64,000 bases of DNA from a virus (taxonomy: Duplodnaviria > Caudoviricetes), in IMG/VR virus record IMGVR_UViG_3300042542_006078. One strand, 5' to 3'. This document shows positions 3,829 to 63,398 of this stretch, one piece after another; positions within the stretch are counted from its first letter, which is position 1, and every line of letters begins with the position of its first letter. Made by a program: the position numbers and the translations under genes. The notes below the pieces were generated by a model. That model saw nothing but the letters and a program-made list of their open reading frames with translations, did no database searches and was not told where the DNA came from.

Positions 3829-4623
3829 TCAAACGCTCTTCCATCTTGGAAGTCCAATCTTTGCACGATTTTTTTGAATCTGAGCCAGAGCGGACAAAGG
3901 ATCAAATCCCTTTGGCTCATTAGGTCCAAGGTCTGGTATTACAACCCGTCCTTTGTACATTCCTATATTTGTCGGACCTGCATCATCATGCTTGAAACCA
4001 GTAGCCCCGTACAACATTGACAAAGTATCCATCATGACAAGCATGTGTGGAAGCAAATCATCATTTCCACCATTATCACGCAAAGTTTTCAAACACAAAT
4101 CTTCCCTCTCTTTTTCCGATGAAGGAAATCCGTCCATTTCAGGATTTTCATCTATAAGAACAGTCATGAAATCTGCTGCTTTACGCATTTCTTGTGGAAC
4201 ACCAATTGTATCAACCCAATGCTGTAAAATAGCGTAAATGTTGTCTCCAAGATATTTGACAGCAACAATTGGCGCTGGGACATCATCCCTTCCAGCAACC
4301 ATTGTCGCCACATTCGCCTCAACCCTATTGGCAGACATCTTGACAACATGGTCAATTAGAAAATAACAACGACCTGCACCACCATCAGCATATGAAGGAG
4401 GAATTTCATCCGGCAATTCAACATTTAGACTTTTAAGCCAAGGAATTAAAGGGGAATTAGGATCAGTCCAATACTTCAAAGTCTCATCATGAGCTTTTCC
4501 CTCAGTTTTCATCTTGGACTTGCTAAACTTTGGAATGACAAATAAATTGCTCATCAACTTGGACAATTTTCCAACCTTGTCCTTCATCTCGCTTTTTGCA
4601 ACGAATTCTCTGAATGTAGTCAT
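3829..4623 (-). CDS. Protein kinase-like protein with capsid-targeting-like N-terminus
   Basis: GGAGRCY glycine loop, VVK, HDDAGPTN (HxDxxxxN), DLG; start MTTFREFVAKSE preceded by TAAATA 5 nt upstream. Confidence 0.7.
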   Translation of the reverse strand: MTTFREFVAKSEMKDKVGKLSKLMSNLFVIPKFSKSKMKTEGKAHDETLKYWTDPNSPLIPWLKSLNVELPDEIPPSYADGGAGRCYFLIDHVVKMSANRVEANVATMVAGRDDVPAPIVAVKYLGDNIYAILQHWVDTIGVPQEMRKAADFMTVLIDENPEMDGFPSSEKEREDLCLKTLRDNGGNDDLLPHMLVMMDTLSMLYGATGFKHDDAGPTNIGMYKGRVVIPDLGPNEPKGFDPLSALAQIQKNRAKIGLPRWKSV

Positions 4624-4701
4624 AATTTTATTTACTAAATAATAACCAATTTCTTCACATAAAACCTTATATAATACAATCATATTCATCAAGGATTATT
4701 C

Positions 4702-5334
4702 ATGTCGCAAGAAAGTCTTCATTATATTCAGTATCTTTCAGGAATTATTTCTGAAGAAAAATTCTACGAAATTGAAGAACAATTTAATGAAGGATTGGCC
4801 AGAAATCTTTTGGGGGCAGGCGCTCTTGCAATGGGAAGTCTTTTCGGAGGCGAAGCTTCAGCCCAAAGCGGAAGAGATCAAATTGATGCCATAAAGAACA
4901 AAATCTCTGATCATGAAGCGACTGAAAATGCAATAGAACTATTAAAGGATGGAAAATTAGATTTTCTTTTAATTAAAACTAATTTGACAGATAAAGAAAA
5001 TAATTTTATCAATAAGATTGAGTATATCGTAAAAAAAAATCCACATGTTGCATTAGACATATTAAAAGAAAAACAGAAACAATTTTATTTGCAGTCTACA
5101 CAAAAGGAAATAGATCAAGGTGGACTTGATCTAAATGATCCTGTTGTCAAATTGATATTTAAGCTATTTCCACAGTTCAAAAAAGCTATGGAAAAAGGTG
5201 GAAAAAATTGGGTTGAACTTGAAGGTCCAAGCACTTTATATGATCTTCAAAAGGAAAAAGACATAAAATGGAAGCAAGAAGATTTAGGTAAACTTTTAAG
5301 AAAATCAATAGAAGGCAATTTGCCTAATCGTTAA
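4702..5334 (+). CDS. Hypothetical protein, paralog A (shared 55-aa N-terminus with 5406..6014)
   Basis: MSQESLHYIQYLSGIISEE...FNEGLARNLLGAGALAMGSLFGGEASAQ, then a unique domain. Confidence 0.75.
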   Translation: MSQESLHYIQYLSGIISEEKFYEIEEQFNEGLARNLLGAGALAMGSLFGGEASAQSGRDQIDAIKNKISDHEATENAIELLKDGKLDFLLIKTNLTDKENNFINKIEYIVKKNPHVALDILKEKQKQFYLQSTQKEIDQGGLDLNDPVVKLIFKLFPQFKKAMEKGGKNWVELEGPSTLYDLQKEKDIKWKQEDLGKLLRKSIEGNLPNR

Positions 5335-5405
5335 AATTTTAATTTAGCACAATTAAAATTAAAAAAAAACCCTAAATATAACAAACCTATTTACGAGGGT
5401 AAAAA

Positions 5406-6014
5406 ATGTCACAAGAAAGCATGCATTATATTCAGTATCTTTCAGGAATTATTTCTGAAGAAAGATTCTATGAAATTGAAGAACAATTTAATGAAGGATT
5501 GGCCAGAAATCTTATGGGAGCAGGCGCTCTTGCAATGGGAAGTCTTTTCGGAGGACCATCTGCTTCAGCCCAAACACCACCTCCAGCAGCAATAACGAAG
5601 AGTGTCGATGAATTCGGTGTTGATGATGATGAAACCGTTCATCATGATGCAAAACAATACACAAAAGAACTAGTTGCCAAATTAAGGATTCACAGAAATG
5701 GTTTTGAAGACAAATATGGCAGAGAAGGAGCGGATTTAGGAAGAATGACAATCAATAAAATTATCAAAGCTGAATCTTCACCAAATGGAAAAAAAGTTAT
5801 TGTGACTATTTCTGGAATGGCAAGAGGTACTAAAGGATCATTACCCGGAAAATCAGAAGAAGCGATTAAGTCTTTAATGGGTCAAGCAGGATCTGTGAGA
5901 GTTTTTGGAGTAGAAAATAGCGGCAAATGGATGGGAGAAGTTCCTGAAGACATCGTCTCTCCCGGTTCTAAATTATACCCATTTACTGCCCAAGTTGTAA
6001 TCACGGGCAAATGA
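5406..6014 (+). CDS. Hypothetical protein, paralog B
   Basis: Near-identical first ~160 nt to 4702..5334, unrelated C-terminus. Confidence 0.75.
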   Translation: MSQESMHYIQYLSGIISEERFYEIEEQFNEGLARNLMGAGALAMGSLFGGPSASAQTPPPAAITKSVDEFGVDDDETVHHDAKQYTKELVAKLRIHRNGFEDKYGREGADLGRMTINKIIKAESSPNGKKVIVTISGMARGTKGSLPGKSEEAIKSLMGQAGSVRVFGVENSGKWMGEVPEDIVSPGSKLYPFTAQVVITGK

Positions 6015-6136
6015 AAAAATTAATTTATATTTGAAATTCAAAAGCCAGTTGTTATGACAACTGGCTTTAATCATTTAATGGCTGGTGAAAAATATAGACG
6101 AAAATTATAATATAATCAATAATAGATATTTTAATT

Positions 6137-7258: not shown

Positions 7259-7743
7259 ATCTAAGGAAATTAGATCAAAAAGATTTGAATTTTTTACTCA
7301 AACTCAAAATGTCATCTCAAGAATATCATCACAGAACAGCAATAATAAACGAGACAGATCAAAATTTATGGTTCAATTCAATTCATCTTGATTCACATCA
7401 TCCAAAAAGTGTTTACCTTGTGGGTTATTCAGAAGATGAAATGGATGTTGGTGTATTCGGACTCGCAAACATCAATTACATAAACGGCACAGCAGAAATA
7501 CTATGTGACATAATTCCAGAACTAAGAAATCAAGGATATGGAGGAAAACTACTCAGATCTGGAATCAAATTTTCAAAATCAATACTTAATCTTAGAAAAC
7601 TTGGATGCGAAGTACTCGAAAATAACAACCCTTGTATGAAAATGCTTACCAAAAATGGTTTCTCCCAAGAGGGAATCAAAGTTAAACAAGTTTTCAAAAA
7701 TGGAGATTATCTAGACAGCGTTATATTTGGACTAATGCTGTAA
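7234..7743 (+). CDS. GNAT N-acetyltransferase (RimJ/RimL/PseH-like)
   Basis: RNQGYG acetyl-CoA loop, LRKLGCEV, N...KMLTKNGF.QEG; overlaps the aminotransferase. Confidence 0.8.
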   Translation: MEMFSYELNLRKLDQKDLNFLLKLKMSSQEYHHRTAIINETDQNLWFNSIHLDSHHPKSVYLVGYSEDEMDVGVFGLANINYINGTAEILCDIIPELRNQGYGGKLLRSGIKFSKSILNLRKLGCEVLENNNPCMKMLTKNGFSQEGIKVKQVFKNGDYLDSVIFGLML

Positions 7744-7755
7744 ATTTTTTCAAAT

Positions 7756-10065
7756 TTAATTTCTAGCCCATCTATCCGACTTTCCACTATAATAATCTAT
7801 TTTGCCCTTTCTTCTTGAACCAAAATTAAACTTCCCAGCAATATCCTCAACATCTCTTCCCTTTTCAACCCTTATCTTTAGATTGACTATATCTTTTTTA
7901 AGATCGCTAATCATGTTCGACAATATTGGCAATTTTTCCAAGAAATTTTCTTTCTCTTTTTCGCTAAGATTTTTTTCTTTACTTAGAACATTATAAACAT
8001 TTTTTAATTTGATCAATTCATTTACAATATTTTTCACCTTATCAGATAAAACATTGACTCCCAACTCTCCTGATCTGTTGAAATTATCACGCATCTTTTC
8101 AATCAACTTTTCAAGCAAATCAAAATTTTTAATCTCTGACCTAGCAAAAGAAGTATGTGTTATGACATCAGACAAAATCATATTATAATCAGCACCAGCA
8201 TCGAGAAGCTTTTCAATATATTTAATTTTTAAGGAATGACTTAAACCATTAGTGCTTAAAATACTTTCTCCCATTTCGCTCAAATGAATGCCACTCATAA
8301 GAGAATGACGAGAATCAGTATCATTCTTATCAGATTCAATTTGTTTTATCTCATGATCTAAAATATGATCGGCAATTTCCTCTTTACCCATATGCAAAGA
8401 TTTTACCAATAAATTTATATTATTGGTACGAGCATTTTGCCAATTTTCATTATTTGAATAATCTTTGTCGTAATAATCTTCTCCAGAAAAATCAAATTCC
8501 CTGTCTTTCATTCCTTTAGGACGACCATACTTGCCTCCAGAATCGAAATGCTTCTTGAAGCTATCATCATCGCCTTTATCCAAACTTATGACCATTTTGG
8601 CGTGAGGATGTAATTTTTCTATATCTGAATTTTCCAAAGATGATAATTCATTTCCGGCAATATCAATACCAGCATGACTGTTTTGAATTATAACTGACTT
8701 ATAAAGATTAAAATCTTTTTCTCTCAAAATTTCTCTTTCATCTACACACAAAGGAACAATATAACCTTTGCGACCAAGAGTAGCATTGATTTTTTTAGAC
8801 ATTCTTTTCCATAATTCATCAACCAATTCTTTATCCCCATTGTCAAGCAAAGTCCTCATTAAAAAGCCTTCTCCAATTTTTCCATAAACTCCCATTTGAG
8901 TAATATTATCGGCAAATTTAGAAATAACTTTTTTTCTCTCATCCCTCATGTTCTTGCTAATGAATTCAAATTCTTCTTCATTTATCGGGTAGGCATGAAC
9001 ATTGGCATCCACAGAAATTAAACGAAAATGCATATACTTTTTGCCCAAATCCTTGTCAGACAAAATATAATTTAACTGAGAACCAGTCATATTCAAGCCA
9101 GTAGAAACATATTGTTCCAACAAATCCCTTAACTTGTGCTTAACCAAGAAATCAAACTGCTCATCACTTAACTTGTGGCCACGACCTATGTAAGAACTCT
9201 TTTGAGCAGGATTTAATCTTATAAACCAATCATAAGAAAGATTCTCATTTCCCAAAAGTTCATTTTCTTGCTTCTCTAAATCATTGTGAGGATTGTTCTT
9301 GAATATCGAAGTGTCAATTCCTTTGCTTCTCAGATAAATAAAGTATTTTGTGTGATCCACATCTCTTAAATCGGAATTTTCAGGATTTTGACAACTTCCT
9401 GTCCTGTTAATCCTATCAGTCAATAAAATCTTGCCATAACTACCAACATCAACTACCACAATATCCAAATTATCATTCCTATTGGAATCAAAAACGAAAT
9501 AAAATGTCGCAGCATGAGAATCACGATATGACTTAAACATTTTGTTTCCCGGCTGAGAAATACAAAATGTCGTTCCACGACCCAATATTATCGCATCAGC
9601 AACATTTTCAGCCTTGAAAACTTTAATACTATTATCACTATTCGCAAAAACAGGACGCAAACGGGAAATATCCTCGTCACTAGGACGATAACGGGAAGCA
9701 GATCTGCTCCTCTCCTCTTCCTCCATTCCATGCATCGCTGCTGTCCATTCCAAATAATTGGAATATTGCCTAAACTGAGTATTCAAATTTCCACTATCAT
9801 CAAATGTAAACAACTTCATCTTGTTCCTGCCAACAAGACGATGATAAACATCAATGTCATTGCCCAATGTTCTTAAATCAGGCTGACTTTTACTAAAATA
9901 AGCAGCAACCAACAAATACTTGTTCTTCTCTTCAGGTTTGATCCCATCTGGCAATATCTCACCTAACTTAATCAAAAAATTAGTATCACCACCAACCAAA
10001 TTCAACGCAATCTCAGAAGGCTTCTTAGCCTCATTAAAATAAAACCATTCACTAAAGTTTAACAT
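7756..10065 (-). CDS. Large hypothetical protein, paralog of 10168..11835
   Basis: MLNFSEWFYFNE start; shares FCISQPGN..YR..TFYFV.D..IVVVD and YIGRGH.L...QFDFL blocks with its neighbour. Confidence 0.75.
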   Translation of the reverse strand: MLNFSEWFYFNEAKKPSEIALNLVGGDTNFLIKLGEILPDGIKPEEKNKYLLVAAYFSKSQPDLRTLGNDIDVYHRLVGRNKMKLFTFDDSGNLNTQFRQYSNYLEWTAAMHGMEEEERSRSASRYRPSDEDISRLRPVFANSDNSIKVFKAENVADAIILGRGTTFCISQPGNKMFKSYRDSHAATFYFVFDSNRNDNLDIVVVDVGSYGKILLTDRINRTGSCQNPENSDLRDVDHTKYFIYLRSKGIDTSIFKNNPHNDLEKQENELLGNENLSYDWFIRLNPAQKSSYIGRGHKLSDEQFDFLVKHKLRDLLEQYVSTGLNMTGSQLNYILSDKDLGKKYMHFRLISVDANVHAYPINEEEFEFISKNMRDERKKVISKFADNITQMGVYGKIGEGFLMRTLLDNGDKELVDELWKRMSKKINATLGRKGYIVPLCVDEREILREKDFNLYKSVIIQNSHAGIDIAGNELSSLENSDIEKLHPHAKMVISLDKGDDDSFKKHFDSGGKYGRPKGMKDREFDFSGEDYYDKDYSNNENWQNARTNNINLLVKSLHMGKEEIADHILDHEIKQIESDKNDTDSRHSLMSGIHLSEMGESILSTNGLSHSLKIKYIEKLLDAGADYNMILSDVITHTSFARSEIKNFDLLEKLIEKMRDNFNRSGELGVNVLSDKVKNIVNELIKLKNVYNVLSKEKNLSEKEKENFLEKLPILSNMISDLKKDIVNLKIRVEKGRDVEDIAGKFNFGSRRKGKIDYYSGKSDRWARN

Positions 10066-10167
10066 GAATTATTTAGAGAATATCAACGAAATTTATTCTC
10101 TTTCCTTGACTATTTCAAATAGTCAACAACATCATCACCAATTTGTGCTTATTCATAAAATACATCT

Positions 10168-11835
10168 CTAACTATAAGAATATTCACTACTTCTTCTCGC
10201 TTGCAAATAATCAACTATATCCTTATGACCATTTTGTTCTGCACCAGCAATTGCATAATTATAATTACTTATTTCTGCGCCTTTGAATAAAAGATATTTA
10301 ACAAGATTCAAATTACCAGCCGATGCTGCATTAGCAACTGCGTTTTTACCTATTTCTATTGGAAATTTATTTATTTCTTCGGCTTTATCAATAAGATCTT
10401 TAACAAAATCTAAATCACCAGTTGCCGATGCAGAAGAAATTAATTTTTCGCTAATTGGGACACCTTTTTTTACAAGATATCTAACAAGATCAAAATTTTT
10501 ATCTCTTGTTGCTACAAGGACTGCGTCATGGCTAACTGGGGCACCTTTTTCTACAAGATATCTAACAATATCAAAATTTTTATCTTTTCCCGACCTCACT
10601 GTTTGCCATATTGCTACAAGGACTGCGTTTTCGCTAATTTTAGCACCACTTTCTACAAAATGCTTAACAGTATCAAAATCATTAAATTCAATTGCCATGT
10701 TTATTTTGTTATAATCTTCACTATCATTTATTTTCTCATAATAGCTTTCTTTCTGTTTAGAACTCAATAAATAATATTCTTTAGCAGTTAAATTTCTACT
10801 ATTCTGATCAGAAATTAATCTATTATGAATATAATTGTCCTTCAAATCACGAATTTTTGCTATTTTATCAATTTGATAATCATCTAATGGCAACCCAGTT
10901 TTAACATATTGAGTCAGCAGAGAATTAAACTTGTTATCCAATAAAAAATCAAATTGCTGATTAGTCAATGGATGCCCTCTTCCAATATATTTTGACTTAT
11001 AATCAGGAGACAAAGAAATAAACCAATTCAAATCACCTTTAGCTTCTCCTAATTTTTCATCTTCTTCTTTTTCTTCTGGCGACTTGGGAATATTTACAAT
11101 TTTTGATAAATCAATACCCTTCTCCTTAAGATATTTCATATAAGACTTAGGATCAGTAGTCAATTCTCCAGTATATGGATCTAATGTTTTGCCAGTCGTA
11201 TTGACCTTGTCTGTGAGAACAGTTTTATATTGTGTTTGATCAACAACCACAATACCCAATCTGTCATCCCTCGTATCATCATACACAAAATAAAAGGTGC
11301 TAGTCTGATTGTCACGATAACTTTGCCACATTCTGTTTCCGGGTTGACTTATGCAAAAACTCTGACCTTTTCCAAGTATAATACATTGTTCTGTATTGTT
11401 AGCTTTATAAACCCTTATCTTGCCACCTGAGCCAGTCAAAATTGGCTTCTCATTCTGGAAATCAATATCGCTAGGCTTAAAATTAGATTTTTCCTTATTT
11501 GATTCTTCTCCTTTATTTCCATGAATAATCTGAGTCCAATAAAGATAATTATCCCAAGGACTAGGTGGTTTTTTAGAAACTAAATCCACAGATATCATTT
11601 TCATCTTGTCTCTGTTCAAATAACCAATATAATCCTTTATATCGATTTTAATTTGATTCAAATCTTTAGTTTTACTGTAATAATATGCTGCTAGCAATAA
11701 TAACTTATCTGCATTTTTATTGTTTTGTGGAATAACTGTGGATAAAGCATTCAAAACAGCACCAGCCAACTCTGATGCCAAAGCCTTCTCTTCTTTGGTT
11801 TCATTTATCAATAACCATTCACGAAAGTTTAACAT
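10168..11835 (-). CDS. Hypothetical protein with C-terminal ankyrin repeats
   Basis: Repeats such as NFDIVRYLVEKGA, NFDLVRYLVKKGV, GNLNLVKYLLFKGA, GHKDIVDYL; MLNFREWLLINE start. Confidence 0.8.
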   Translation of the reverse strand: MLNFREWLLINETKEEKALASELAGAVLNALSTVIPQNNKNADKLLLLAAYYYSKTKDLNQIKIDIKDYIGYLNRDKMKMISVDLVSKKPPSPWDNYLYWTQIIHGNKGEESNKEKSNFKPSDIDFQNEKPILTGSGGKIRVYKANNTEQCIILGKGQSFCISQPGNRMWQSYRDNQTSTFYFVYDDTRDDRLGIVVVDQTQYKTVLTDKVNTTGKTLDPYTGELTTDPKSYMKYLKEKGIDLSKIVNIPKSPEEKEEDEKLGEAKGDLNWFISLSPDYKSKYIGRGHPLTNQQFDFLLDNKFNSLLTQYVKTGLPLDDYQIDKIAKIRDLKDNYIHNRLISDQNSRNLTAKEYYLLSSKQKESYYEKINDSEDYNKINMAIEFNDFDTVKHFVESGAKISENAVLVAIWQTVRSGKDKNFDIVRYLVEKGAPVSHDAVLVATRDKNFDLVRYLVKKGVPISEKLISSASATGDLDFVKDLIDKAEEINKFPIEIGKNAVANAASAGNLNLVKYLLFKGAEISNYNYAIAGAEQNGHKDIVDYLQARRSSEYSYS

Positions 11836-11924
11836 GAATTATTTAGAGAATATCAACGAAAATTTATTGTCTTTTTTTAACTGATTTCAAATAATCAAAA
11901 ATATCATTACATAATTTTTATCAA

Positions 11925-12719
11925 TCAAGACTCAATCCAATCCTGTCCATTATGAACTAAAATTTTAGTCACAGGTAAAGAACTTTCTCCTGTGTACTTC
12001 AAAGCCATAGGATTCTTTCCATAATTATTCTGGAAAAACCAAGATTCTAACTTTTTATGCAATTCTGGATTACGATCCTGATGAGCATAATAAAAAGGAG
12101 CTATATTAGATGCTGCTCCTGCACTGTAATAAGGGTTATCATTCAACAAAGGATCACGAACACTTCCGATTCTACCGGGAAATTTACCATACAAATTTCT
12201 GTATTCAGGATTCTTCTTGATAGTCGAAAATGGAACTGGCTCGGCATCAATACCAGTCAACTTTTCTCCAACTTCATCCTTTGACAAATATTTTTTTGTC
12301 TTGTCTGTTAAATTAACATCTCCCAACTTGTTCAGCTTTCCAACTCTTTTAGAAGCATAAGTAAGAATGTCTTTCGCATGATTCTCAATGTCCAAATCCC
12401 ATTCACCAAAATCAATATTTGGAACATCTATTACAACAACTATAGGATTACCCTCTAAAGAACCCTTCAAACCATACAATTCTCTTTTCATACGAGCCAA
12501 AGCATGAGTTTTTGCGCTTTCATCCGATGTCCAAAGAAACAAACCACCTCCCTGACCATGACCATATCCCGAAGACCTAGCACCATCCCTCTTAAATGAA
12601 TTCAATACCTCATCGTCCTTTCCAGAACTAGTTCCATGATAAAACCTGAAAGGACCACTAATAACAAAATCATCAGAATAAACCTCATCATGTCGAAGCC
12701 AATCTTTGAAATATATCAT
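11925..12719 (-). CDS. Putative ADP-ribosyltransferase-like protein
   Basis: FYHGTS followed by GGGLFLWTS...A..HA, resembling the HGT / GxGxY core of PARP/ART-like folds; MIYFKDWLRHDE start. Confidence 0.45.
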   Translation of the reverse strand: MIYFKDWLRHDEVYSDDFVISGPFRFYHGTSSGKDDEVLNSFKRDGARSSGYGHGQGGGLFLWTSDESAKTHALARMKRELYGLKGSLEGNPIVVVIDVPNIDFGEWDLDIENHAKDILTYASKRVGKLNKLGDVNLTDKTKKYLSKDEVGEKLTGIDAEPVPFSTIKKNPEYRNLYGKFPGRIGSVRDPLLNDNPYYSAGAASNIAPFYYAHQDRNPELHKKLESWFFQNNYGKNPMALKYTGESSLPVTKILVHNGQDWIES

Positions 12720-12735
12720 AAATTATTAATCCCAT

Positions 12736-13479
12736 TTATCTATAAATCCACTCACTCTGACGCATATATCCCGGCATTCCTAATCCACGCATCCCAGCTT
12801 CCCAATCTCCACGACTACTAACCTTCACTCCACCCAATCCTAACTTCTCCATAGCAGCCTTCTTCTCAACTGGATTCATCAAATGTAACCTCTGACGCAA
12901 TTCCAATTTCTCACGATCAGAATCACTCATAGCCACACCAACATTTCCACCCATTACCTTACTTATATGTACCGTTCCCAACAAAGGCGTACTTACAAAA
13001 ACATCCTTACCTACAAAATATTCTTCCATAGACCTCAAACAATCTACCAAATTGCGTGAATATACAGATTTCTCATCATTCCAAAAACTCACTAACAAAA
13101 ACTTAACCTTCATATTATCATCTTTTTTCCTACTATCAAGAAATATAGACCAATTTCCCATCCTTCCCATTAAATCATGCTTAATTCCCTTTACCCTGTA
13201 ATCATAACTACTATCATATCCCAAACTGTCCCGCCTATCCTGCAACTCATCCCTCATATCAATCAAATCTACATGATTCCTAAAATTAATATTGTCAACA
13301 TCACTAGTATACAACTTACCACCAGATACCACTTCCTTACCCAAATATATAAATAGACGCTTAATCTGATTAGAACCTAAACCAAATATGTCATCAGGTA
13401 TGTCATCAGGACTCATATAAGGCCCCTCTAAATCAACATCAAATGACTCCACATAACTCAACCATTCCCTAAAACTCAT
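12736..13479 (-). CDS. Hypothetical protein (MSFREWLSYVE start), flanked by 14-bp direct repeats
   Basis: ORF; tccactcactctga at 12747-12760 and 13487-13500. Confidence 0.7.
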   Translation of the reverse strand: MSFREWLSYVESFDVDLEGPYMSPDDIPDDIFGLGSNQIKRLFIYLGKEVVSGGKLYTSDVDNINFRNHVDLIDMRDELQDRRDSLGYDSSYDYRVKGIKHDLMGRMGNWSIFLDSRKKDDNMKVKFLLVSFWNDEKSVYSRNLVDCLRSMEEYFVGKDVFVSTPLLGTVHISKVMGGNVGVAMSDSDREKLELRQRLHLMNPVEKKAAMEKLGLGGVKVSSRGDWEAGMRGLGMPGYMRQSEWIYR

Positions 13480-13491
13480 AAATAACTCCAC

Positions 13492-13560
13492 TCACTCTGA
13501 TGCCAAATCCTTCTCTTGTTTGCTTTCATTAAAATAAAACCATTCACGAAAGTTTAACAT
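13492..13560 (-). pseudogene. 22-codon stub MLNFREWFYFNESKQEKDLASE*, truncated paralog of 7756/10168
   Basis: Matches the N-termini of both paralogs and has the same upstream atattctctaaataattcATG. Confidence 0.7.
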
Positions 13561-13817
13561 GAATTATTTAGAGAATATCTTAAAGATATTGCATTCGATA
13601 AATAGATTAAAATAAATAAAAAGGAAAATTATGAGCAAATTTTGGCTAGTATGGTGCAGAACTATGGGATGCAAAATAAGCGATGATAAAATAGAATCAG
13701 ATACTGCCTGCCTAATTCGCACATTTTGGTGGATCATGCACATAATCACTTGCGGATTCATCATCGCAAACTGCATCAGACATTGGAATAATTGAAAACA
13801 ATAAACATAATTAAATT

Positions 13818-14561
13818 ATGGAAAAACCTAAATGGACGATAGGAACTGTGAATTGGAAATCAATTGAATTCATTGAATATCAATTGAAATATTTTCATGA
13901 ATACAATCAAGACTTTGAATTTATAGTTTGTGATAATGAAAGCAATGTTGAAACTCCTAAATTCAAAGATCTCAAAGAGAAATATCCAAAATTAAAATTG
14001 GTGAATTCGCAATCGAGGAATTGTGCATGGAGCGCACACGGAATTGGTCTCAATCAATGCATGAAAATCGCAGAAGGAAAATACATCTTGTTAATGGACC
14101 CAGACTTTTTCTGGATGAAGAAAGATATTCTTTCATTTTTTGAAAATTATTTCAAAATGGGATATCACGCTATTGGAACAGAATATGCCGGAACTGACTT
14201 TCCAATGCCTTGGGGAGCAGCTTATATTACTGATGAAATTAATGATTTAGATTTAATCGTAAAAACATCTATTTGTGAAAAATGTAACATTTTGGTTTAT
14301 GATAAAATGTATGACACCGGATGGCAACTCAGAATACGATTAAGCAATAAACCACATCATGCATTCAAACAAGTTTTGAATCAAATTCCAAATCTAGGAA
14401 GATACAACACTAATTGGTCGCAAACATATATTCATGATAACAAAGCTATAGCTCACCATTTCAAAAGCGGGAGTCAAATAGAAAAAACATATAATGAACA
14501 ACAAGTTAAAGAAATAAGAGAAAAATATACAGATTGGATGTGGAATCAATTATATGATTAA
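13818..14561 (+). CDS. Glycosyltransferase GT2-like, tandem copy 1
   Basis: FEFIVCDN, HGIGLN, YILLMDPDFFW. Confidence 0.8.
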   Translation: MEKPKWTIGTVNWKSIEFIEYQLKYFHEYNQDFEFIVCDNESNVETPKFKDLKEKYPKLKLVNSQSRNCAWSAHGIGLNQCMKIAEGKYILLMDPDFFWMKKDILSFFENYFKMGYHAIGTEYAGTDFPMPWGAAYITDEINDLDLIVKTSICEKCNILVYDKMYDTGWQLRIRLSNKPHHAFKQVLNQIPNLGRYNTNWSQTYIHDNKAIAHHFKSGSQIEKTYNEQQVKEIREKYTDWMWNQLYD

Positions 14562-14590
14562 TTTTAATTTATATTTTACTAAATTAGTTC

Positions 14591-15337
14591 ATGTCGAACA
14601 AATGGACGATAGGAACTGTGAATTGGAAATCAATTGAATTCATTGAATATCAATTGAAATATTTTCATGAATTTTCTGATGACTTTGAATTCATAGTTTG
14701 CGATAATGAAAGTAGTGTTGAAACTCCTAAATTCAAAGATCTTAAAGAGAAACATCCAAAATTAAAATTGATAAATCAACATTGGAAAAGTGATTCATGG
14801 GCCGCACACGGAATTGGTCTCAATCAATGCATGAAAATCGCAGAAGGAAAATACATCTTGTTAATGGACCCAGACTTTTTCTGGATAAAGAAAGATATAC
14901 TTTCATTTTTTGAACACTATTTCGATCAAGGCTACCATGCAATTGGAGCAAATTACATGCATATGAGAACAAGTTTTCCAATGATTTGGGCAGGAGCTTA
15001 TATCACTGATGAAATTAGAGATTTAGATTTGATGACAAGAAATCCTCGATGCGAATCTTGCAAAAATTGTATTTATGATAGAGATTACGATACTGGTTGG
15101 CAAATCAAGATAAGACTTGGTAATAAACCTCACTATTCATTTGAACAAATTCAAAACCAAGTTCCAAATTTCGGCAAATATAATAATAGAGACTCAGAAA
15201 CATATGTTTATGATACAAAAGTTATAGCTCACCACTTAAAAAGTGGAAGTCAAATAGAGGAAGATTATACCCAAGAAAAAATCAAAGAAATAAGAGAAAG
15301 ATACACAGAATGGATGTGGAGTCAATTATACGATTGA
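14591..15337 (+). CDS. Glycosyltransferase GT2-like, tandem copy 2
   Basis: Same motifs, DPD. Confidence 0.8.
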   Translation: MSNKWTIGTVNWKSIEFIEYQLKYFHEFSDDFEFIVCDNESSVETPKFKDLKEKHPKLKLINQHWKSDSWAAHGIGLNQCMKIAEGKYILLMDPDFFWIKKDILSFFEHYFDQGYHAIGANYMHMRTSFPMIWAGAYITDEIRDLDLMTRNPRCESCKNCIYDRDYDTGWQIKIRLGNKPHYSFEQIQNQVPNFGKYNNRDSETYVYDTKVIAHHLKSGSQIEEDYTQEKIKEIRERYTEWMWSQLYD

Positions 15338-15383
15338 TTTTAATTTTCACTGCAATAAATGTCGAAAACAAGATTGAGGATTT

Positions 15384-16130: not shown

Positions 16131-16159
16131 TTTTAATTTATATTTTACTAAATTAATTT

Positions 16160-16912: not shown

Positions 16913-16918
16913 GGATTT

Positions 16919-17665: not shown

Positions 17666-17720
17666 AAAAATAAACAAAATCTTGAAATCAAATCCATTCT
17701 AATTGAAGCTCATCAATTAT

Positions 17721-18797
17721 TTATACCGAAATTTCAGGATCATTTTGGACAATGTTTGGCTGATTAATTTGATTCCTACTATTCTTTGTTCTAAGCCAAT
17801 CATTAGGAAGTCCAAGACTTATTCCATATTCCTCTTCACCTTCGTATTTTCTAGCTGCCAACGGATGTCCAGAATAGGCATGTTTTCTTGTGCTCAACCA
17901 TCTATTTAATAATGTTCTATTTGGAGGATAATTACCATTAACTTTGTAATAGTTGGCAAGTTCCTCAATTTTTTGATTATTTTTTTCTTGTAATTTTTCA
18001 GTAGTAATTTGTAGTTTGAGCCAATCATTCGGAAGACCAAGACTTATTCCATATTGCTCTTCTCCTTCATACTTGTTTAATTTTCCTCTTCCTGCATATG
18101 TTTGTCTTTTTGCTTTAATCCAATTATGCAATTTTTCTTCTTCTTTTAATTTGGCAAAAGGGTATCTTTTCCATTTTGTATAAAATTCCGCAAGTTCTTC
18201 TACTTTTTTGAAATTTTGATTTTTTCTTAATTTGTCAAGTTCTACTGACAAATCTGGATTTATTGGTATCGATTCATCATTAAAAACTTTTTCTCTTTGG
18301 TCTCTAACTTTTTCTGGAACTAAAGGATTTGCGTAATTTTCTTGGAATCCCTCTGACTTAATGAATTCTTTTATGATATTTTCCATATTGTTAATTTCCC
18401 AATAAGGAATCACAAGAAGAGGAATATTGTTTTCCTTGCAAAAATCATATTTTATTTTGTCTCTTAAAACACTTCCTTTGAAATGTGTAATTTCTCTGTG
18501 CCAATGTTTGGTAAATTTATAATGTTGCGCTCCATGAAATTCAACAACATATCTTCTGTTGTTTTCCTCAACTAAAAATGAAGCATCAAATCTCAAACAT
18601 TTTTTATTGACACATTTATCAAACTGATATTGAACATCATGAGATCCAAATAATCTTTTAAGTATTTCGCCAAGTAAAACTTCACCCTTCGATATTGACG
18701 GAACTATTGATTTATTTTGTCTTATGATTGGAGAAATAGTTGCAGTGCCATCTACAAATTCTGATTCTTCTCGATATAACCAAAGTTTGAAATTCAT
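17721..18797 (-). CDS. PD-(D/E)xK (Vsr/DUF559-like) endonuclease fused to helicase-associated (HA)-like repeats
   Basis: LRFD..F....VVEFHGAQHY...RDKIKYDFCKENNIPLLVIPYW, then two ~65-aa repeats ending KYEGEE.YGISLGLPNDWL. Confidence 0.75.
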   Translation of the reverse strand: MNFKLWLYREESEFVDGTATISPIIRQNKSIVPSISKGEVLLGEILKRLFGSHDVQYQFDKCVNKKCLRFDASFLVEENNRRYVVEFHGAQHYKFTKHWHREITHFKGSVLRDKIKYDFCKENNIPLLVIPYWEINNMENIIKEFIKSEGFQENYANPLVPEKVRDQREKVFNDESIPINPDLSVELDKLRKNQNFKKVEELAEFYTKWKRYPFAKLKEEEKLHNWIKAKRQTYAGRGKLNKYEGEEQYGISLGLPNDWLKLQITTEKLQEKNNQKIEELANYYKVNGNYPPNRTLLNRWLSTRKHAYSGHPLAARKYEGEEEYGISLGLPNDWLRTKNSRNQINQPNIVQNDPEISV

Positions 18798-18957
18798 CAA
18801 TTATTTATGAAGAAATAATCGGATTTATGACAATAAAGAATAAATTATTTGCGGTTCTTCTTCATAAATCTTCCAACATTTGGAAGAATCAGGAAAACTT
18901 ACCGGATATCCCATCATCTTGAAATCAAATCCATTTTAATTGAAGCTCATCAATTAT

Positions 18958-20058
18958 TTATGAAGAAATTTCAGGATCATTTTGGACAATGTTTGGCTGA
19001 TTAATTTGATTCATACTATTCTTTGTTCTAATCCACTTTGTTCTAAGCCAATCATTAGGAAGTCCAAGACTTATTCCATATTCCTTTTCACCTTCGTATT
19101 TTGCAACAGCACCTCTTCCCTGATATGCTTGTCTTTTGCTACTAAGCCAATTTTTTAATTGTTTTTCTGATTCTATTTTGCTTCTTTCGCTGGGATATTT
19201 TCCATTATCCCTGTAAAATGCAGCAAGTTTTCTTATTCTATCGTAATGTTCTTCTTTTGTAGTAATAATTTGTGGTTTAAGCCAATCATTCGGAAGCCCA
19301 AGACTTATTCCATATTCCTCTTCACCTTCGTATTTTGCATATTTCCCTCTTCCCAGATATATTTGCCTTTTGTCAGCAAGCCATCTTCCTAATTGATTTT
19401 CTGATTCTATCTTGCTCCCAATACTGGGATATTTTCCACTATCTCTGTAAAATGAAGCAATTTCTTGTATTTTTTGATTATTTTTTTCTTGTAATTTTAA
19501 TTTTTCATTAGTAATTTGTAGTTCGAGCCAATCATTAGGAAGTCCAAGACTTATTCCATATTCTTTTTCTCCTTCATATTTTCCAACAGCACTTCTTCCC
19601 TGATATGCTTGCCTTTTGCCATTAAGCCAAATTCCTAATTGTTTTTCTGATTCTATTTTGCTAAATTGTCTGGGATATTTTCCATTATCCTTGTAAAATA
19701 CAGCAAGTTGTCTTATTTTTTGATTATTTTTTTCTTGTAATTTTTCTTCACTAAATTGTGGTTTAACCCAATCATTAGGAAGTCCAAGACTTATCCCATA
19801 TTGCTCTTCACCTTCGTATTTTGCAGCACCAGACCCTCTTCCCAGATATGCTTGTCTTCTTTTATTAAGCCATCTTCCTAATTGTTTTTCTGATTCTATT
19901 TTGCTTACAGTGCTGGGATATTTTCCATTATCCTTGTAAAATACAGCAAGTTGTCTTATTTTTTGATTATTTTTTTCTTTATTTATGGTTGGATAAATAG
20001 TTGCAGTGCCATCTGCAAATTCTGATTCTTCTCGATATAACCAAAGTTTGAAATTCAT
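18958..20058 (-). CDS. HA-like repeat protein (5 repeats), paralog without the nuclease domain
   Basis: Repeats FYKDNGKYP...SKIESEKQLG.WL...RQ.Y.G...KYEGE..YGISLGLPNDW. Confidence 0.75.
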   Translation of the reverse strand: MNFKLWLYREESEFADGTATIYPTINKEKNNQKIRQLAVFYKDNGKYPSTVSKIESEKQLGRWLNKRRQAYLGRGSGAAKYEGEEQYGISLGLPNDWVKPQFSEEKLQEKNNQKIRQLAVFYKDNGKYPRQFSKIESEKQLGIWLNGKRQAYQGRSAVGKYEGEKEYGISLGLPNDWLELQITNEKLKLQEKNNQKIQEIASFYRDSGKYPSIGSKIESENQLGRWLADKRQIYLGRGKYAKYEGEEEYGISLGLPNDWLKPQIITTKEEHYDRIRKLAAFYRDNGKYPSERSKIESEKQLKNWLSSKRQAYQGRGAVAKYEGEKEYGISLGLPNDWLRTKWIRTKNSMNQINQPNIVQNDPEISS

Positions 20059-20671
20059 CAATTATTTATGAAGAAATAATCGGATTTATGACAATAAAAA
20101 ATAAATTATTTGCGGTTCTTCTTCATAAATCTTCCAACATTTGGAAGAATCAGGAAAACTTACCGGATATCCCATCTTCCATTCTAAACTAATTCCAAGC
20201 TCATTTTTGCCAAAAGCACAATGTGTCATATTCTTGTTCCAACATTTTTCTTTGCTGGTGTGATAAATGTTTCTTGTCATGTTAAATATCAATTTTTTTC
20301 CAATTAAAAGAAAATGCGTGACTCTTAGACCAGTTGAACGAACAAGGTCTAAATACAAACCAAGAACAGTACCAAGACATTCTCCATGAATTGGATTTAC
20401 TGGCTATTCTTGAACTAGATTCCGACCTGCCAGAAGACCAACAGTAATTTTCTGATATGCTTTTAATGAACATGTTCATTTTACTTCCCATCTAAAAAAC
20501 TAATTTTAGAAATGTTGCTCCAGTTAACAGATCTTTTTGCATTGAATACATTTGATTCATAAAAATGCAAAATACCATGATCAGATCGACACAATGTGTC
20601 AAAACTAAATCTAGCAAAAGATATAAATCCCGTGAAACAAAAACATGAAGACAAATTATTTTTCTTGAAAA

Positions 20672-25019: not shown

Positions 25020-25413
25020 GATATACTCCATAAAACTATAATCTTATATATCACTTATTCAAACTTTGTAACATGTCCACAACCAAGCTTTTCGTATAAA
25101 TTCCGACCAGAGATTATATCATGATCTGTCATCACACAACCCTCACAAATATCTCATTAGACCATTGATGATTATCAGAAAAACATTGCGATCTCGTTAC
25201 CCAAGATCTACTGAAAAATCTACTCAAATCTTGATAAGATGTGAAAGCACAACTACTTGTATGACTGTTAACACGAACAAGAGATTCTTCCTTCCAGATA
25301 GAATGCTTCGGTGTATTTGCACTAAAATTAATCATAATCCCACAATACCTCAACCAATCCAAACCGTAAAACCATAAAAAACATTTTTATACACAAAAAT
25401 AACTAAATAATTC

Positions 25414-26220
25414 ATGAATAATTTCAAGTATTGGCTAAACATACAAGAAGGACTAGCTCTAAAAGGAGGATTCAAAGGAAGCTGGTTCCAAAGACTAGTA
25501 GCAGCAATGTATGTACTAGCACCAGAATCAGAACAAGAAGCAGTCCAACTCTACATAGCACCAAATGGACTAACAAACGCAATCAATCACCAATTCAACC
25601 AACTACAAACCAAATACACCCACCACCTAAGCAAATCCGACCCATTCAAAAGCAGCAAAGAACTCGCCAAACATATAGATGACCAAAAAAAAGCAGGAAT
25701 CAAAAAACCATCTGTACCTTCATATGACGCAGAACTAGGTCCAAATATCACACAAGACCAAAAAGGGCACCCAGTCTGGAATAAAGACCAAGACCAAAAA
25801 TTCGGATGGGTACACGACCTCTTAACTCACTATGCCGGTAAATTACCATTCGATGCCCGTGGAGAAGCAAAAGCTTACCTCAAACACCTAAAAACACTAC
25901 CACCTCATTTAGCACCAATACTATTCACAGAAATTATCGCCCAAACATCATACTACTACATCTATGGAGACTTCCCTAAACAAAAAGTAACTATACTCAA
26001 AGACTTCGATCACATCAATGTCGGAAAACTTAACCCACAATCAAAACTAAATCAATTCTTTGAATTCAAAAACAAAGAACTTATACCCAAAAAAAATATA
26101 AAATTAGAAGAACTAAAATCAGTAAACCCACTACTACCAACTATACTCAAAAACCAAGAATCAAGATGGCATAACAACGACAAACCTAAACACAAACTCG
26201 ATACACTAAACCAAAATTAA
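25414..26220 (+). CDS. Hypothetical protein with HDxxxH...GEAKAY..H motif
   Basis: MNNFKYWLNIQE start, TAAATA 4 nt upstream. Confidence 0.7.
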   Translation: MNNFKYWLNIQEGLALKGGFKGSWFQRLVAAMYVLAPESEQEAVQLYIAPNGLTNAINHQFNQLQTKYTHHLSKSDPFKSSKELAKHIDDQKKAGIKKPSVPSYDAELGPNITQDQKGHPVWNKDQDQKFGWVHDLLTHYAGKLPFDARGEAKAYLKHLKTLPPHLAPILFTEIIAQTSYYYIYGDFPKQKVTILKDFDHINVGKLNPQSKLNQFFEFKNKELIPKKNIKLEELKSVNPLLPTILKNQESRWHNNDKPKHKLDTLNQN

Positions 26221-27987: not shown

Positions 27988-28470
27988 TCAAACCTTCTGA
28001 GCCCCAACAGATTTTTTCTGCAAATACTCAATAGCAATCTTATTCGCAAATCCCTTCAAGCTATCAGGTGTAACAGACTTAGGATTAGAAGATATCTGCT
28101 GTATCCTACCCTGAACCAATCCCATAATCTCATTCTTCGCAACAGGACTCAATATCCCAGTCTTATCATCCCACAATGAATCATCTATATCAAAAATTTC
28201 CGAATTAGGAACACTACCACGAGAAGAATCAGGAATAGACATAGCCTGCTTTATCAAATTACCAGCATCCTGACGACTCTTTATCAAACTAAAAATCTGA
28301 CCAGCTAAACCAGCAGCCTGAATAATCGAATCTATTCCCATTAAACCACTAACAGCACCAACAGCAGTCTGACCAACAGCCCTCGCTACCTGACCAGCAG
28401 TTCCTATGTTAGATTGCTGCGCTATATTAGCCTCCCTCATAAAAACATAATCGTAAAAAGAAAGATTCAT
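27988..28470 (-). CDS. Hypothetical protein (MNLSFYDYVFMRE start)
   Basis: ORF with GGGGG RBS. Confidence 0.7.
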   Translation of the reverse strand: MNLSFYDYVFMREANIAQQSNIGTAGQVARAVGQTAVGAVSGLMGIDSIIQAAGLAGQIFSLIKSRQDAGNLIKQAMSIPDSSRGSVPNSEIFDIDDSLWDDKTGILSPVAKNEIMGLVQGRIQQISSNPKSVTPDSLKGFANKIAIEYLQKKSVGAQKV

Positions 28471-59547: not shown

Positions 59548-59553
59548 AGACAT

Positions 59554-61452: not shown

Positions 61453-61808
61453 TAGATTTAGTAACACTGTGATGCGAGTGACATCACAGTGTTACTTTTT
61501 TTTATTTCAAAATTATTTTACGCACTTGTACTCTAAAATATTTTTACACACTTGTACTCTAAAAATATTTTTACAAAAAAAATAATTCAAAAATTATTTG
61601 CTAAAAAGTTATAGCAGCAGATAGCCACCCTACCGCCGGTCCCTACTATGACCCCCTCCTTTTTTATTCATTAGCATTTTTTTATTTTTCCTAGATTTTT
61701 GCAAAGATTTAGTCCTGACAATTTTGGATAAATGCTGAAAAAGTTTGAAATCTTATAATGATGGCATCTTAAAAAAATGTGGAGTGGGGATTTTTGTTGA
61801 TTATGGTA

Positions 61809-62189
61809 TTACATTTTGAATTGTTCTAGTTCATTTTGGTTGATTAGGTATGCTTTGATATTTTTATGGTTTTTGGAATTTGCTTTATAGAGTCTATGTA
61901 CACCGTCAGCTATAAATAGTCCGTCTTGGTATTGGACTACTATGATTGGGTATTTGAGTTCAGTTTGTTCTGCTCTTTCGATGAATTCTGGGTGGCCGGG
62001 AAGTTCTGATCCTGATTCATGAGGAGATGGTTCTAGGTTGTGAAGTAGTGGTTCTATTGGTAGATTTTGTATTAATTTATTTTCTGTTGCGTATTTGACT
62101 ATTTTTGGAACTGAGTATGTTCCGTTGTTATCTGAGAATGTCTGGTCTTCCATTCTGTAGGATTCTAGGAATTGTTTGAATGTTTTCAT
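61809..62189 (-). CDS. ParB/Sulfiredoxin-like domain protein with capsid-targeting-like N-terminus
   Basis: YPIIVV...IADGVHRLYKA; MKTFKQFLES; TAAATA 4 nt upstream. Confidence 0.7.
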   Translation of the reverse strand: MKTFKQFLESYRMEDQTFSDNNGTYSVPKIVKYATENKLIQNLPIEPLLHNLEPSPHESGSELPGHPEFIERAEQTELKYPIIVVQYQDGLFIADGVHRLYKANSKNHKNIKAYLINQNELEQFKM

Positions 62190-62208
62190 GATTTATTTAG
62201 TGGTTTTT

Positions 62209-62802
62209 TTATTTTTTAAGGTCTGGGTAAAGGTCGAATATTTTTTGATAGTCATTTGGTTCAACTAGGTTTGATTCTAGTTCGTGTGCAATTGCTTGTT
62301 TGTGTACATTTCTCCATAATTCTTCACCTCCTTTGATATTGACATATTGATCTGGAGTTAGTTTATAAGCTAATGGTTCATCTGGTTCTTCGGGTTTATC
62401 TGGTTTATCTGGCATATTTGGTGGTTGAATATTCAGATTATAAGCCATAGTGAGTGTTGGTTGTCCAGAAAGGCTTGTCCATTTTTTGCCTGATGCTATT
62501 TCCAGTTCTGATCCATTTATTCTTATTGCGCTTCTGTTTTTTGGTGTAACTACTGATGTTTTTGTCATTGTGTTGAATATTACATTTTTTCCTTCGTCCC
62601 AATTTTTGTTTGCTGCGTCCATTAATTTTTGTGCGAATTCTTTTTTTATTGATCTGGATTGATTTTTGTATTCATCTAGTTCTTTTTTATATTTTTCCAT
62701 TTCTTTTTCATATTTTTCTTTAGATAAGATGTATTCATCATATTCATTATTTTCTTTGTATATGAAAAATTTATTTTCCATGAATTGCTTGAATGTTTTC
62801 AT
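62209..62802 (-). CDS. Hypothetical protein (MKTFKQFMEN start)
   Basis: Start moved to ATG 62802; TAAATA 5 nt upstream. Confidence 0.7.
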   Translation of the reverse strand: MKTFKQFMENKFFIYKENNEYDEYILSKEKYEKEMEKYKKELDEYKNQSRSIKKEFAQKLMDAANKNWDEGKNVIFNTMTKTSVVTPKNRSAIRINGSELEIASGKKWTSLSGQPTLTMAYNLNIQPPNMPDKPDKPEEPDEPLAYKLTPDQYVNIKGGEELWRNVHKQAIAHELESNLVEPNDYQKIFDLYPDLKK

Positions 62803-62816
62803 GGTAATATTTATTG

Positions 62817-63398
62817 TCATCCAGTAAAATCTGTGCCGAATAATTTTGATAATACGAGGTAAGATTTTTTGCAAGCTTTTTCTTTGTCGAATATTCGATT
62901 ACCCATACGAGCTTGTCCACTATTAAGCATTTCAGAATATAACATAGACCATCCTTTGCAGCCGTATTGACTGAATGTATATGGTGAAGTGTTTAGTATT
63001 GATGCGCTAAATCTTGCGTAAATTTTTGGTAATATTTCAATATTACCTTTTGAAACATCAGAATCTGGTTCTGGTGGCTCCAGCATGTCATATAGTTCTG
63101 GCATGTTTTTAATGTACATAGCTGCTCTGTTGACTTCTTCTTTTGGTCCGCAGTAGATGGTAATATCTTTTTCGTCTGGTTCACCTCCTCCTAATATTTT
63201 TGATTTCCATTTGTTGCCGCTATTTTCAATTATTTTTAGGACAAGTTTATAGGCATCGTTTCTTTTTTTGTCATCTAATCCTGTTCTGAGGTGAATTTTC
63301 CATCCTCCGAATCCACCTACTGGTATTGATCTTTGTTTTATTTGTGGTTGTTCTTCTTTTTGTTCTTGATTTTCGAGAAATTGTTTGAATGTGATCAT
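62817..63398 (-). CDS. Hypothetical protein (MITFKQFLEN start)
   Basis: WKIHL motif; TAAATA 5 nt upstream. Confidence 0.7.
   Translation of the reverse strand: MITFKQFLENQEQKEEQPQIKQRSIPVGGFGGWKIHLRTGLDDKKRNDAYKLVLKIIENSGNKWKSKILGGGEPDEKDITIYCGPKEEVNRAAMYIKNMPELYDMLEPPEPDSDVSKGNIEILPKIYARFSASILNTSPYTFSQYGCKGWSMLYSEMLNSGQARMGNRIFDKEKACKKSYLVLSKLFGTDFTG

Follow-up and report, generated by a model that had tools for sequence, protein, structure and literature searches.

The DNA analysed here is a stretch of 64,000 nucleotides (nt), IMG/VR record IMGVR_UViG_3300042542_006078 (hereafter, the window), from an uncultured freshwater huge phage. Among its genes, at least 11, which fall into about ten unrelated body families, carry a portable 5' cassette that comprises a (C)TAAATA box 4-5 nt upstream of the ATG, no Shine-Dalgarno sequence, and a short N-terminal leader peptide resembling the capsid-targeting sequence (CTS) of bacteriophage T4. 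This pattern is real, strongly non-random and conserved. From it, we infer capsid loading of the leader-bearing proteins, removal of the leader after Glu, injection, late timing and leaderless transcripts. The chance that these proteins are capsid cargo, packaged in a manner like that of the T4 CTS, is in our estimate slightly better than even (about 0.55).

Leader genes of the window

The leader comprises 9-13 residues with the pattern M-x(0-2)-[NTS]-F-[KR]-[EQD]-[WFY]-[LVF], and a Glu then occupies position +5 or +8 relative to the Phe. The pattern was found at 11 N-termini, as compared to 1.3 expected from its frequency inside proteins, when a simple gene call of the window (103 open reading frames, ORFs) was used. 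An earlier note on this DNA had listed 12 leader-type N-termini, all of which were confirmed in the sequence, and a pattern scan bore out its statement that ten of them have TAAATA 4-5 nt upstream of the ATG and no Shine-Dalgarno sequence. The spacer between the box and the ATG is 4 nt at 10065, 11835, 13560, 18797, 20058, 25414 and 62189, and 5 nt at 4623, 62802 and 63398. The start at 12719 has a box with one mismatch, TTAATA, and a 4 nt spacer; the start at 13479 has a GGAG Shine-Dalgarno sequence and sits 81 nt downstream of the boxed stub at 13560. The leader genes, boxes and stubs are as follows.

3829..4623, minus strand: leader gene 1, leader MTTFREFVAKSE, protein-kinase-like body
4629..4634, minus strand: TAAATA box of gene 1, 5 nt upstream of ATG 4623
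7756..10065, minus strand: leader gene 2, leader MLNFSEWFYFNE, 769 residues; CTAAATA box 10070-10075
10168..11835, minus strand: leader gene 3, leader MLNFREWLLINE, 555 residues, C-terminal ankyrin repeats; CTAAATA box 11840-11845
11925..12719, minus strand: leader gene 4, leader MIYFKDWLRHDE, ADP-ribosyltransferase-like body (FYHGT...GQG...DLDxE); degenerate box TTAATA 12724-12729
12736..13479, minus strand: leader gene 5, MSFREWLSYVE; Shine-Dalgarno-led, without a box of its own; body without family assignment
13492..13570, minus strand: boxed 22-codon stub, MLNFREWFYFNESKQEKDLASE*, ATG 13560; copy of the 5' cassette of genes 2 and 3
17702..17723, minus strand: copy of the promoter-ATG cassette, TATAAATAATTGATG, MSFN*, ATG 17713; overlaps the stop codon of gene 6
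17721..18797, minus strand: leader gene 6, MNFKLWLYREE; homing-endonuclease-like domain and HA-type repeats; box 18802-18807
18939-18960, ATG 18950, minus strand: twin cassette copy (boxed 4-codon stub MSFN*) behind gene 7
18958..20058, minus strand: leader gene 7, MNFKLWLYREE; HA-type repeats only; box 20063-20068
25404..26220, ATG 25414, plus strand: leader gene 8, leader MNNFKYWLNIQE; CTAAATA box 25404-25409
61809..62199, ATG 62189, minus strand: leader gene 9, MKTFKQFLE, 126 residues; CTAAATA box 62194-62199; PHROG 17560, E=4e-10
62209..62813, ATG 62802, minus strand: leader gene 10, MKTFKQFME, 197 residues; TAAATA box 62808-62813
62817..63409, ATG 63398, minus strand: leader gene 11, MITFKQFLE, 193 residues; CTAAATA box 63404-63409
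2773..3825, plus strand: possible extra member, MKSIFVKWLE, 350 residues, Shine-Dalgarno-led
27988..28470, minus strand: possible extra member, start MNLSFYDYVFMRE, Shine-Dalgarno-led

For the genes at 3829-4623 and 62209-62802, the automatic calls start too far upstream, at 4689 and 62820 (public calls use the first in-frame ATG or one just inside it); the orthologue alignment (35 orthologues) indicated that the leader Met is the true start of both. The possible member at 2773-3825 bears a precomputed AcrVA2-like label (PF26125) on public contigs, which was not reproduced by the Pfam scan performed here. If the label is correct, the gene could encode a packaged anti-CRISPR.

Association of the leader, the box and the start codon

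For comparison, we used the whole sequence of an IMG/VR relative, G003 (373 kb, 98% complete as estimated by CheckV). In this genome, 29 genes match the leader pattern, and 20 of these 29 have TA[AT]ATA 3-6 nt upstream of the ATG, as compared to 27 of the 621 others, several of which are themselves leader-like but lie outside the search pattern. The association between leader and box was significant in both the window (Fisher p=1.7e-8) and G003 (p=1.2e-18). The box-to-ATG spacers of G003 are concentrated at 4 nt (23 cases) and 5 nt (16 cases), with 0.48 expected per bin, and the histogram has a small second hump at 15-19 nt.

Shine-Dalgarno sequences were seen in 0/7 boxed genes of the window gene call and in 57/96 others; the corresponding fractions in G003 were 5/47 and 343/603. 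The codon that follows the box after 4-5 nt was ATG in 36 cases, GTG in 3 and TTG in 1, with 2 for the control codon CTG. A possible rare leaderless GTG start was noted at G003 217065-217931 (plus strand), where the box overlaps an ATG and the leader VLNFSKWFLNE starts at a GTG 5 nt past the box.

In the orthologues of the kinase-like gene 1 from five relatives (33-54% identity), the box is kept 4-5 nt upstream of the ATG, whereas the letters of the spacer differ. Selection therefore maintains the arrangement, which does not represent a local repeat.

Resemblance to the T4 capsid-targeting sequence

The N-terminus of both IPII and IPIII of T4 is MKTYQEFIAE (T4 record AF158101), in which, according to mutational work, capsid targeting depends mainly on residues 4 and 7 and processing on residues 8 and 10 (PMC9026906). 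The leader positions were counted in the 34 boxed leader genes of the window and G003. The position matching T4 residue 4 is Phe in 33/34, and that matching T4 residue 7 (+3 from the first aromatic) is Trp, Phe or Tyr in 34/34; the residue after the second aromatic is mostly Leu or Val, and Glu or Asp is found at +5 in 13/34 and at +8 in 21/34, as compared to +6 in T4. By this alignment, the two best-conserved positions of the leader correspond to the pair of residues required for capsid targeting in T4. The close resemblance to T4 that the earlier note had proposed was thus upheld, with the aromatics at matching positions 4 and 7. The leader MKTFKQFLE of the window and MKTFKEFIAS of a relative are identical to the T4 CTS at 6-7 of 10 residues. 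In AlphaFold models of the kinase-like and ADP-ribosyltransferase-like proteins, the leader forms a short N-terminal helix that is separate from the body and has lower confidence. Behind the helix lies a linker modelled with low confidence in the former and a short coil in the latter.

The leaders have in common with the CTS of IPII and IPIII, which is removed by gp21 (PMC9026906, PMC3012670), a location at the extreme N-terminus and a length of about ten residues, the aromatics at positions 4 and 7 with an aliphatic residue next and then Glu, the attachment of one tag to unrelated, fast-turning-over bodies, and a cargo with an ADP-ribosyltransferase (putative here; Alt in T4). Conversely, about a dozen genes in 64 kb bear the tag here, as compared to four in T4. 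The boxed genes here lack Shine-Dalgarno sequences and have the box 4-5 nt from the ATG, unlike T4 ipII and ipIII, both of which are preceded by Shine-Dalgarno sequences; in its predicted leaderless layout, the system thus departs from T4. The system also differs in that no homologues of gp21, gp22, gp23 or gp20 were detected in the relatives, and it is known here from sequence alone. We regard the leader system as a variant of the T4 capsid-targeting system, for which packaging is predicted from the leaders.

The giant phages SPN3US, phiKZ and 201phi2-1 likewise pack many different proteins, and N-terminal propeptides, cleaved after Glu, have been proposed as their CTS; paralogues with identical N-termini, MANFVKSKLARESVE, are known among them (PMC5694885). 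Their propeptides are mostly 80-160 residues long, unlike the 9-13 residues seen here, and are cleaved at A/S/G-x-E by gp245 (SPN3US) or gp175 (phiKZ), of a protease family that was not detected in the relatives of the window (PMC5694885). Tags of the present kind in uncultured huge phages are apparently unpublished, as no mention was found in full-text literature searches, a jumbo-phage review, or papers on the heads of T4 and giant phages.

Modularity of the tagged proteins

When the first 15 residues were removed, the leader proteins of the window fell into about ten body families unrelated by BLASTP. The only paralogous pairs are 7756-10065/10168-11835, in which the N-terminal 330 residues of gene 2 are paralogous to gene 3 (42% identity over 333 residues), and 17721-18797/18958-20058. 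Only one body family is common to the window and G003, and the tagged set therefore turns over quickly. The earlier view of a shared address on unrelated domains is in agreement with these results, and with the finding that homologues of two of the bodies occur with the leader, without the leader, and inside giant multidomain proteins. These comparisons show, at the level of sequence, that the leader is a detachable module, as well as its T4-likeness.

This is seen for the family of gene 4 (11925-12719), for which an exhaustive HMMER search found 104 relatives. Thirty-nine small homologues begin with a leader (e.g., MNFKDWLELYE, MKFANWLQFNE and MISFKQYLERKE), whereas 42 homologues without a leader start 4-16 residues before the conserved (catalytic) His (e.g., MKFYHAA and MELYHVT), and the domain is also found inside proteins of 2,500-6,400 residues. 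Among the leader-bearing homologues, a span of 8-17 residues separates the His from the first acidic residue that follows the aromatic pair. A cut after the acidic residue of the leader would yield about the same N-terminus as that of the untagged relatives.

Cassette repeats and proposed recombination

The promoter-plus-leader DNA is much better conserved than the bodies behind it. The repeats at 10031-10084 and 13526-13579 are 98% identical in nucleotide sequence, those at 11769-11854 and 13494-13579 are 91% identical, those at 10043-10144 and 11813-11917 are 88% identical, and those at 18722-18915 and 19983-20176 are 98% identical. Ahead of the unrelated leader gene 5, the cassette of genes 2 and 3 recurs in truncated form as the stub at 13560. 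This stub has the appearance of a scar left by recombination, which provides gene 5 with a promoter. In addition, the two HA-repeat genes, 6 and 7, both end inside a copy of their own cassette; in each case, the stop codon of the gene and the box of the copy overlap (stubs 17713 and 18950).

Such repeats and stubs are leftovers expected from recombination between cassettes. The cassette may serve as a recombination handle. Such a handle, kept near-identical in DNA even where the attached bodies have diverged or are unrelated, and leaving stubs in its wake, would explain the rapid turnover of the cargo set. This pattern recalls the internal-protein sets of T-even phages, which are variable and have only the CTS in common (PMC3012670, PMC9026906).

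Predicted functions of the putative cargo

The body of gene 1 (3829-4623) is a predicted kinase-fold enzyme, in which every catalytic motif of the protein-kinase-like fold is present. The family has 57 homologues. In 35 aligned orthologues at 35-80% identity, F4 of the leader is invariant, as are the motifs GxGxxG, VVK, E, HxDxxxxN and DLG; the invariant residues are G81, G84, K95, E102, H212, D214, N219, D231, L232 and G233. The model has a predicted local distance difference test score (pLDDT) of 88, and the top 50 Foldseek matches were all APH or protein-kinase structures (probability 0.84-1.0, with low template modelling scores of about 0.3), the top PDB matches being APH and the MEK1 and MPS1 kinase fold. 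The protein also gave weak profile matches to STK16, RIO1 and MKK7.

Gene 4 probably encodes an ADP-ribosyltransferase, as judged from weak scores. H28 is present in at least 90% of the sequences, D110 and E112 are invariant, and the motif YHGT is found; no significant Pfam match was obtained for the body at 11925-12719. The model (pLDDT 87.5) gave weak Foldseek matches (E>=0.04), nearly all of the ADP-ribosyltransferase fold and mostly to Tpt1, PARP, diphtheria and cholix toxins, DarT and MbcT, and its Atlas neighbours bear PF18760, PF26151 or PF00644, with ART-PolyVal and AcrIF11 included. The top fold match of this model was chain 9k3a_B of the cyanophage A4 pre-ejectosome (E=0.04, probability 0.33), which is too weak to use, although it would be of note if the protein is ejected.

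Among the other bodies, gene 6 (17721-18797) matched PHROG 559 (E=6e-19) and PHROG 9084 (E=7e-16), gene 7 (18958-20058) matched the Pfam family HA (helicase-associated-type repeats, E=2.6e-11), and gene 3 (10168-11835) matched Pfam Ank_2 (E=2.9e-14). The body of gene 8 (25414-26220) resembles a domain of Rhodococcus phage E3 gp205, annotated as 'structural protein' (PHROG 3170, E=2e-11).

Overall, the cargo looks like a set of putative host-takeover and counter-defence enzymes, with a kinase-fold protein, a probable ADP-ribosyltransferase, a nuclease with DNA-binding repeats and ankyrin repeats. By analogy, this mixture resembles the injected effectors T4 Alt and the polyvalent proteins (PMC5512222). 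The latter are effector enzymes thought to be delivered with the DNA, as is proposed here, and the domain family of gene 4 is also embedded in multidomain proteins of 2,500-6,400 residues; the cargo of the window differs in consisting of single genes, each with its own tag and promoter, and not of beads on one giant polypeptide.

The box and the predicted start of transcription

T4 late promoters have TATAAATA at -13 to -6, and the T4-like Aeromonas phage Aeh1 uses CTAAATA from -12 (PMC1524935). The boxes of the window have in common with the T4-family late promoters the TAAATA core, present in 10/10, and the lack of a -35 element, and CTAAATA, as in Aeh1, is found in 6/10 (PMC1524935). They differ in that TATATA is an accepted variant in G003, and in that T4 late genes have ordinary Shine-Dalgarno leaders, whereas the box here is 4-5 nt from the start codon, with a predicted mRNA leader of 0-1 nt. 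By geometry, if the last A of the box is placed at -6, the A of the ATG falls at +1 when the spacer is 5 nt long and at -1 when it is 4 nt long. This geometry, together with the missing Shine-Dalgarno sequence and the near-exclusive use of ATG, fits a predicted leaderless or nearly leaderless mRNA.

The features typical of leaderless genes are present, namely no Shine-Dalgarno sequence, an AUG start, and a -10-like element a few nt upstream. In the mycobacterial leaderless transcriptome (PMC4633059), a -10-like element also lies just upstream of the start codon, Shine-Dalgarno sequences are missing and AUG is preferred. The present case differs from these mRNAs in that a phage-specific box is tied to one functional gene class, and in that the same genome has many strongly Shine-Dalgarno-led genes. 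Two metatranscriptome runs provided only contigs of 131 nt and 291 nt inside 62209-62802, which hold no information on 5' ends, and no RNA dataset was listed with a match to window 7700-13700.

The earlier note had suggested a search for a gp55 homologue, which led to one weak candidate in G003: the gp55 profile phrog_234 matched (E=6.4e-4) a protein of 110 residues that has sigma-70 region 2 only. The gene (L034:1495-1827, minus strand; G003 96335-96667) adjoins two leader genes. Only five close homologues of the protein were found, and these close homologues match PF04542. It is a candidate minimal sigma factor for the TA[AT]ATA box. When a small sigma profile was constructed from G003, neither the window nor the other loci contained a match.

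Head machinery and the proposed destination of the tagged proteins

In our view, the following mechanism is the most likely. The box would act as the -10-like element of a T4/Aeh1-type promoter, from which the mRNA starts at or within one base of the AUG. The short amphipathic N-terminal helix of the product would dock it on the assembling prohead core, and the tagged protein would be packed with the DNA and delivered into the next host. A head protease would probably remove the leader after Glu.

Several observations weigh against this mechanism. The machinery that reads the CTS in T4 is not recognisable in the sequences of the relatives, on which the searches with head-gene hidden Markov models (HMMs) were run; very divergent proteases escape HMMs. 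A homologue of gp21, which the earlier note had advised looking for, was not found: the T4-type prohead protease (PF03420, phrog_207) had no match in the 98%-complete G003 or in G001, G002, G004 and G005. The phiKZ-type protease (phrog_3014), the HK97-type protease (PF04586) and capsid (PF05065), and the T4-type capsid (PF07068, phrog_138) and portal (phrog_213) were missing from G003 and three partial relatives, and a phmmer search with 12 T4 proteins gave no match among the G003 ORFs. The failure to find head machinery weakens the view that this is a T4 CTS system. It does not weaken the view that the leader works like a T4 CTS, because SPN3US and phiKZ load ejection proteins via N-terminal propeptides that are cut after Glu by very divergent proteases (PMC5694885). 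In the leader itself, the Glu is at +5 or +8 and not at +6, and P3 is not always Leu or Ile, so that the putative processing site is similar to that of T4 but not the same.

Other points of this kind concern the box. The boxes had been described as late promoters; they have the T4 core and, in six, the Aeh1 variant, but the full TATAAATA is present in 0/10 genes and only at the stub 17713. About 20 boxed G003 genes have no leader, and some leader genes are Shine-Dalgarno-led, which indicates that box and leader are associated but not obligatorily linked. Furthermore, the rIIA-like gene of G003 (220002-222119, plus strand; PHROG 612, E=2e-112) has GTAAATA 4 nt upstream of its ATG, and rIIA is not a late gene in T4. 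The core of the T4 late promoters is thus present, but the assignment of the boxed genes as late, made in the earlier note, is not established, and the box is not confined to leader genes or to obviously structural genes. Separately, the idea that the leader is a mere codon-level requirement of leaderless translation was ruled out by the about 20 boxed G003 genes, which have unrelated N-termini, and by the Shine-Dalgarno-led leader genes.

It is conceivable, though unlikely, that the leader does act as a portable address tag but directs proteins elsewhere than to the capsid interior, for instance to a compartment or assembly factory that the phage builds within the cell, to a chaperone or a partner protein, or to the tail or baseplate. 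The lack of detectable T4-like head machinery in the relatives would be explained in this way, and the sole body homologue from a cultured phage is the domain of Rhodococcus phage E3 gp205, which adjoins a tail-fibre gene and not head genes. In addition, no large G003 protein repeats the leader motif internally, as was searched for in scaffold-like proteins, so that no scaffold-like docking partner is visible. On the other hand, the best-conserved leader positions coincide with the two targeting residues of T4 (PMC9026906), the cargo types (the putative ADP-ribosyltransferase and the nuclease) parallel injected T4 Alt and polyvalent proteins (PMC9026906, PMC5512222), and the domain of gene 4 occurs in giant polyvalent-type proteins that are thought to be injected. 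These likenesses argue for the capsid as the destination.

With regard to the box, we give a similarly low probability to a role as a translation-initiation or RNA-processing element in longer transcripts, or as a promoter that starts a few bases upstream and leaves a very short mRNA leader. Read-through transcripts are possible for the tandem genes at 61809-63398, which have only 14-19 nt from stop to ATG, and a start at the A would, by the T4 geometry, need one base more than the 4-nt spacer provides (PMC1524935). However, the hexamer is kept at a fixed 4-5 nt, with variable spacer letters, across the orthologues at 33-54% identity; it matches the core of the T4-family late promoters, is mutually exclusive with the Shine-Dalgarno sequence, and is followed almost only by ATG, as needed for leaderless translation. 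The minor spacer peak at 15-19 nt suggests that the box also serves ordinary leadered genes. Finally, the shared 5' module could be a recombination hot spot or a selfish cassette that is spread by gene conversion and whose peptide has no function. The cassette repeats of 88-98% nucleotide identity on diverged bodies, the stubs and the scars are in line with such spread, but we consider this highly improbable, because the peptide is kept where the DNA has diverged, with F4 invariant in 35 orthologues down to 35% identity, and the motif is kept in G003, with which only one body is common.

The broadest form of the capsid-cargo interpretation, which we put forward tentatively and with less confidence than the packaging itself, is that huge phages without recognisable T4-type head machinery load dozens to perhaps a hundred effector enzymes via a T4-like N-terminal address, with a leaderless mRNA from each promoter-ATG cassette, and that the cassette doubles as a recombination handle for cargo turnover. 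If the tag indeed directs proteins to the head, the proteins that uncultured huge phages inject could be enumerated from sequence alone, which would provide a direct catalogue of candidate host-takeover and anti-defence enzymes. It would also mean that the principle of capsid targeting known from T4 extends to very different head machinery, and that a compact promoter-plus-tag cassette with apparently leaderless mRNAs is available as a natural plug-in for phage engineering.

Origin of the window and neighbouring genes

The stretch is contained in lake-water metagenomes from 16 studies. DNA and protein searches with the window revealed no close relative among 50,697 GenBank phage records, and tblastn of the kinase-like gene 3829-4623 against the same 50,697 records revealed no cultured relative. 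Homologues of this gene were found on metagenome contigs of up to 640 kb, including one with 54% identity on a 525-kb contig. On the latter contig, two IS605 OrfB/TnpB-type genes (L002:6423-7526 and 17177-18280) lie less than 20 kb from the kinase-like orthologue. An origin from a eukaryotic giant virus, with a poxvirus-like TAAAT late promoter, was ruled out by the AAGGAG Shine-Dalgarno sequences, the PHROG matches and the phage-only relatives.

The region 30000-61300 (plus strand) is a long co-oriented run of small genes with a strong AAGGAG Shine-Dalgarno sequence, located 6-9 nt upstream of the ATG. Many of these genes have in common either an upstream leader repeat of about 30 nt, TGCGATTTTTTACCCAAAGGAGTGTGTGAT, or a different repeated motif, CTTCGGAAAGCCGAGAAGCAAAGCCGATAT, and the GC content of the region is 38-45%, as compared to about 31-35% in the leader-gene regions. 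Within it, the gene at 38952-39947 (plus strand) has a weak match to a prokaryotic JAB domain.

Two further groups of paralogues were observed on the plus strand. Adjacent paralogues at 4702-5334 and 5406-6014 (MSQES[LM]HYIQYLSGII) are 92% identical over their first 169 nt. Five tandem paralogues of 247-250 residues at 13818-17665, with DNA 75-83% identical, gave a weak match to glycosyltransferase family 2, and two of the five have CTAAATTA, a near-variant of the TAAATA box, about 5 nt upstream of the ATG.

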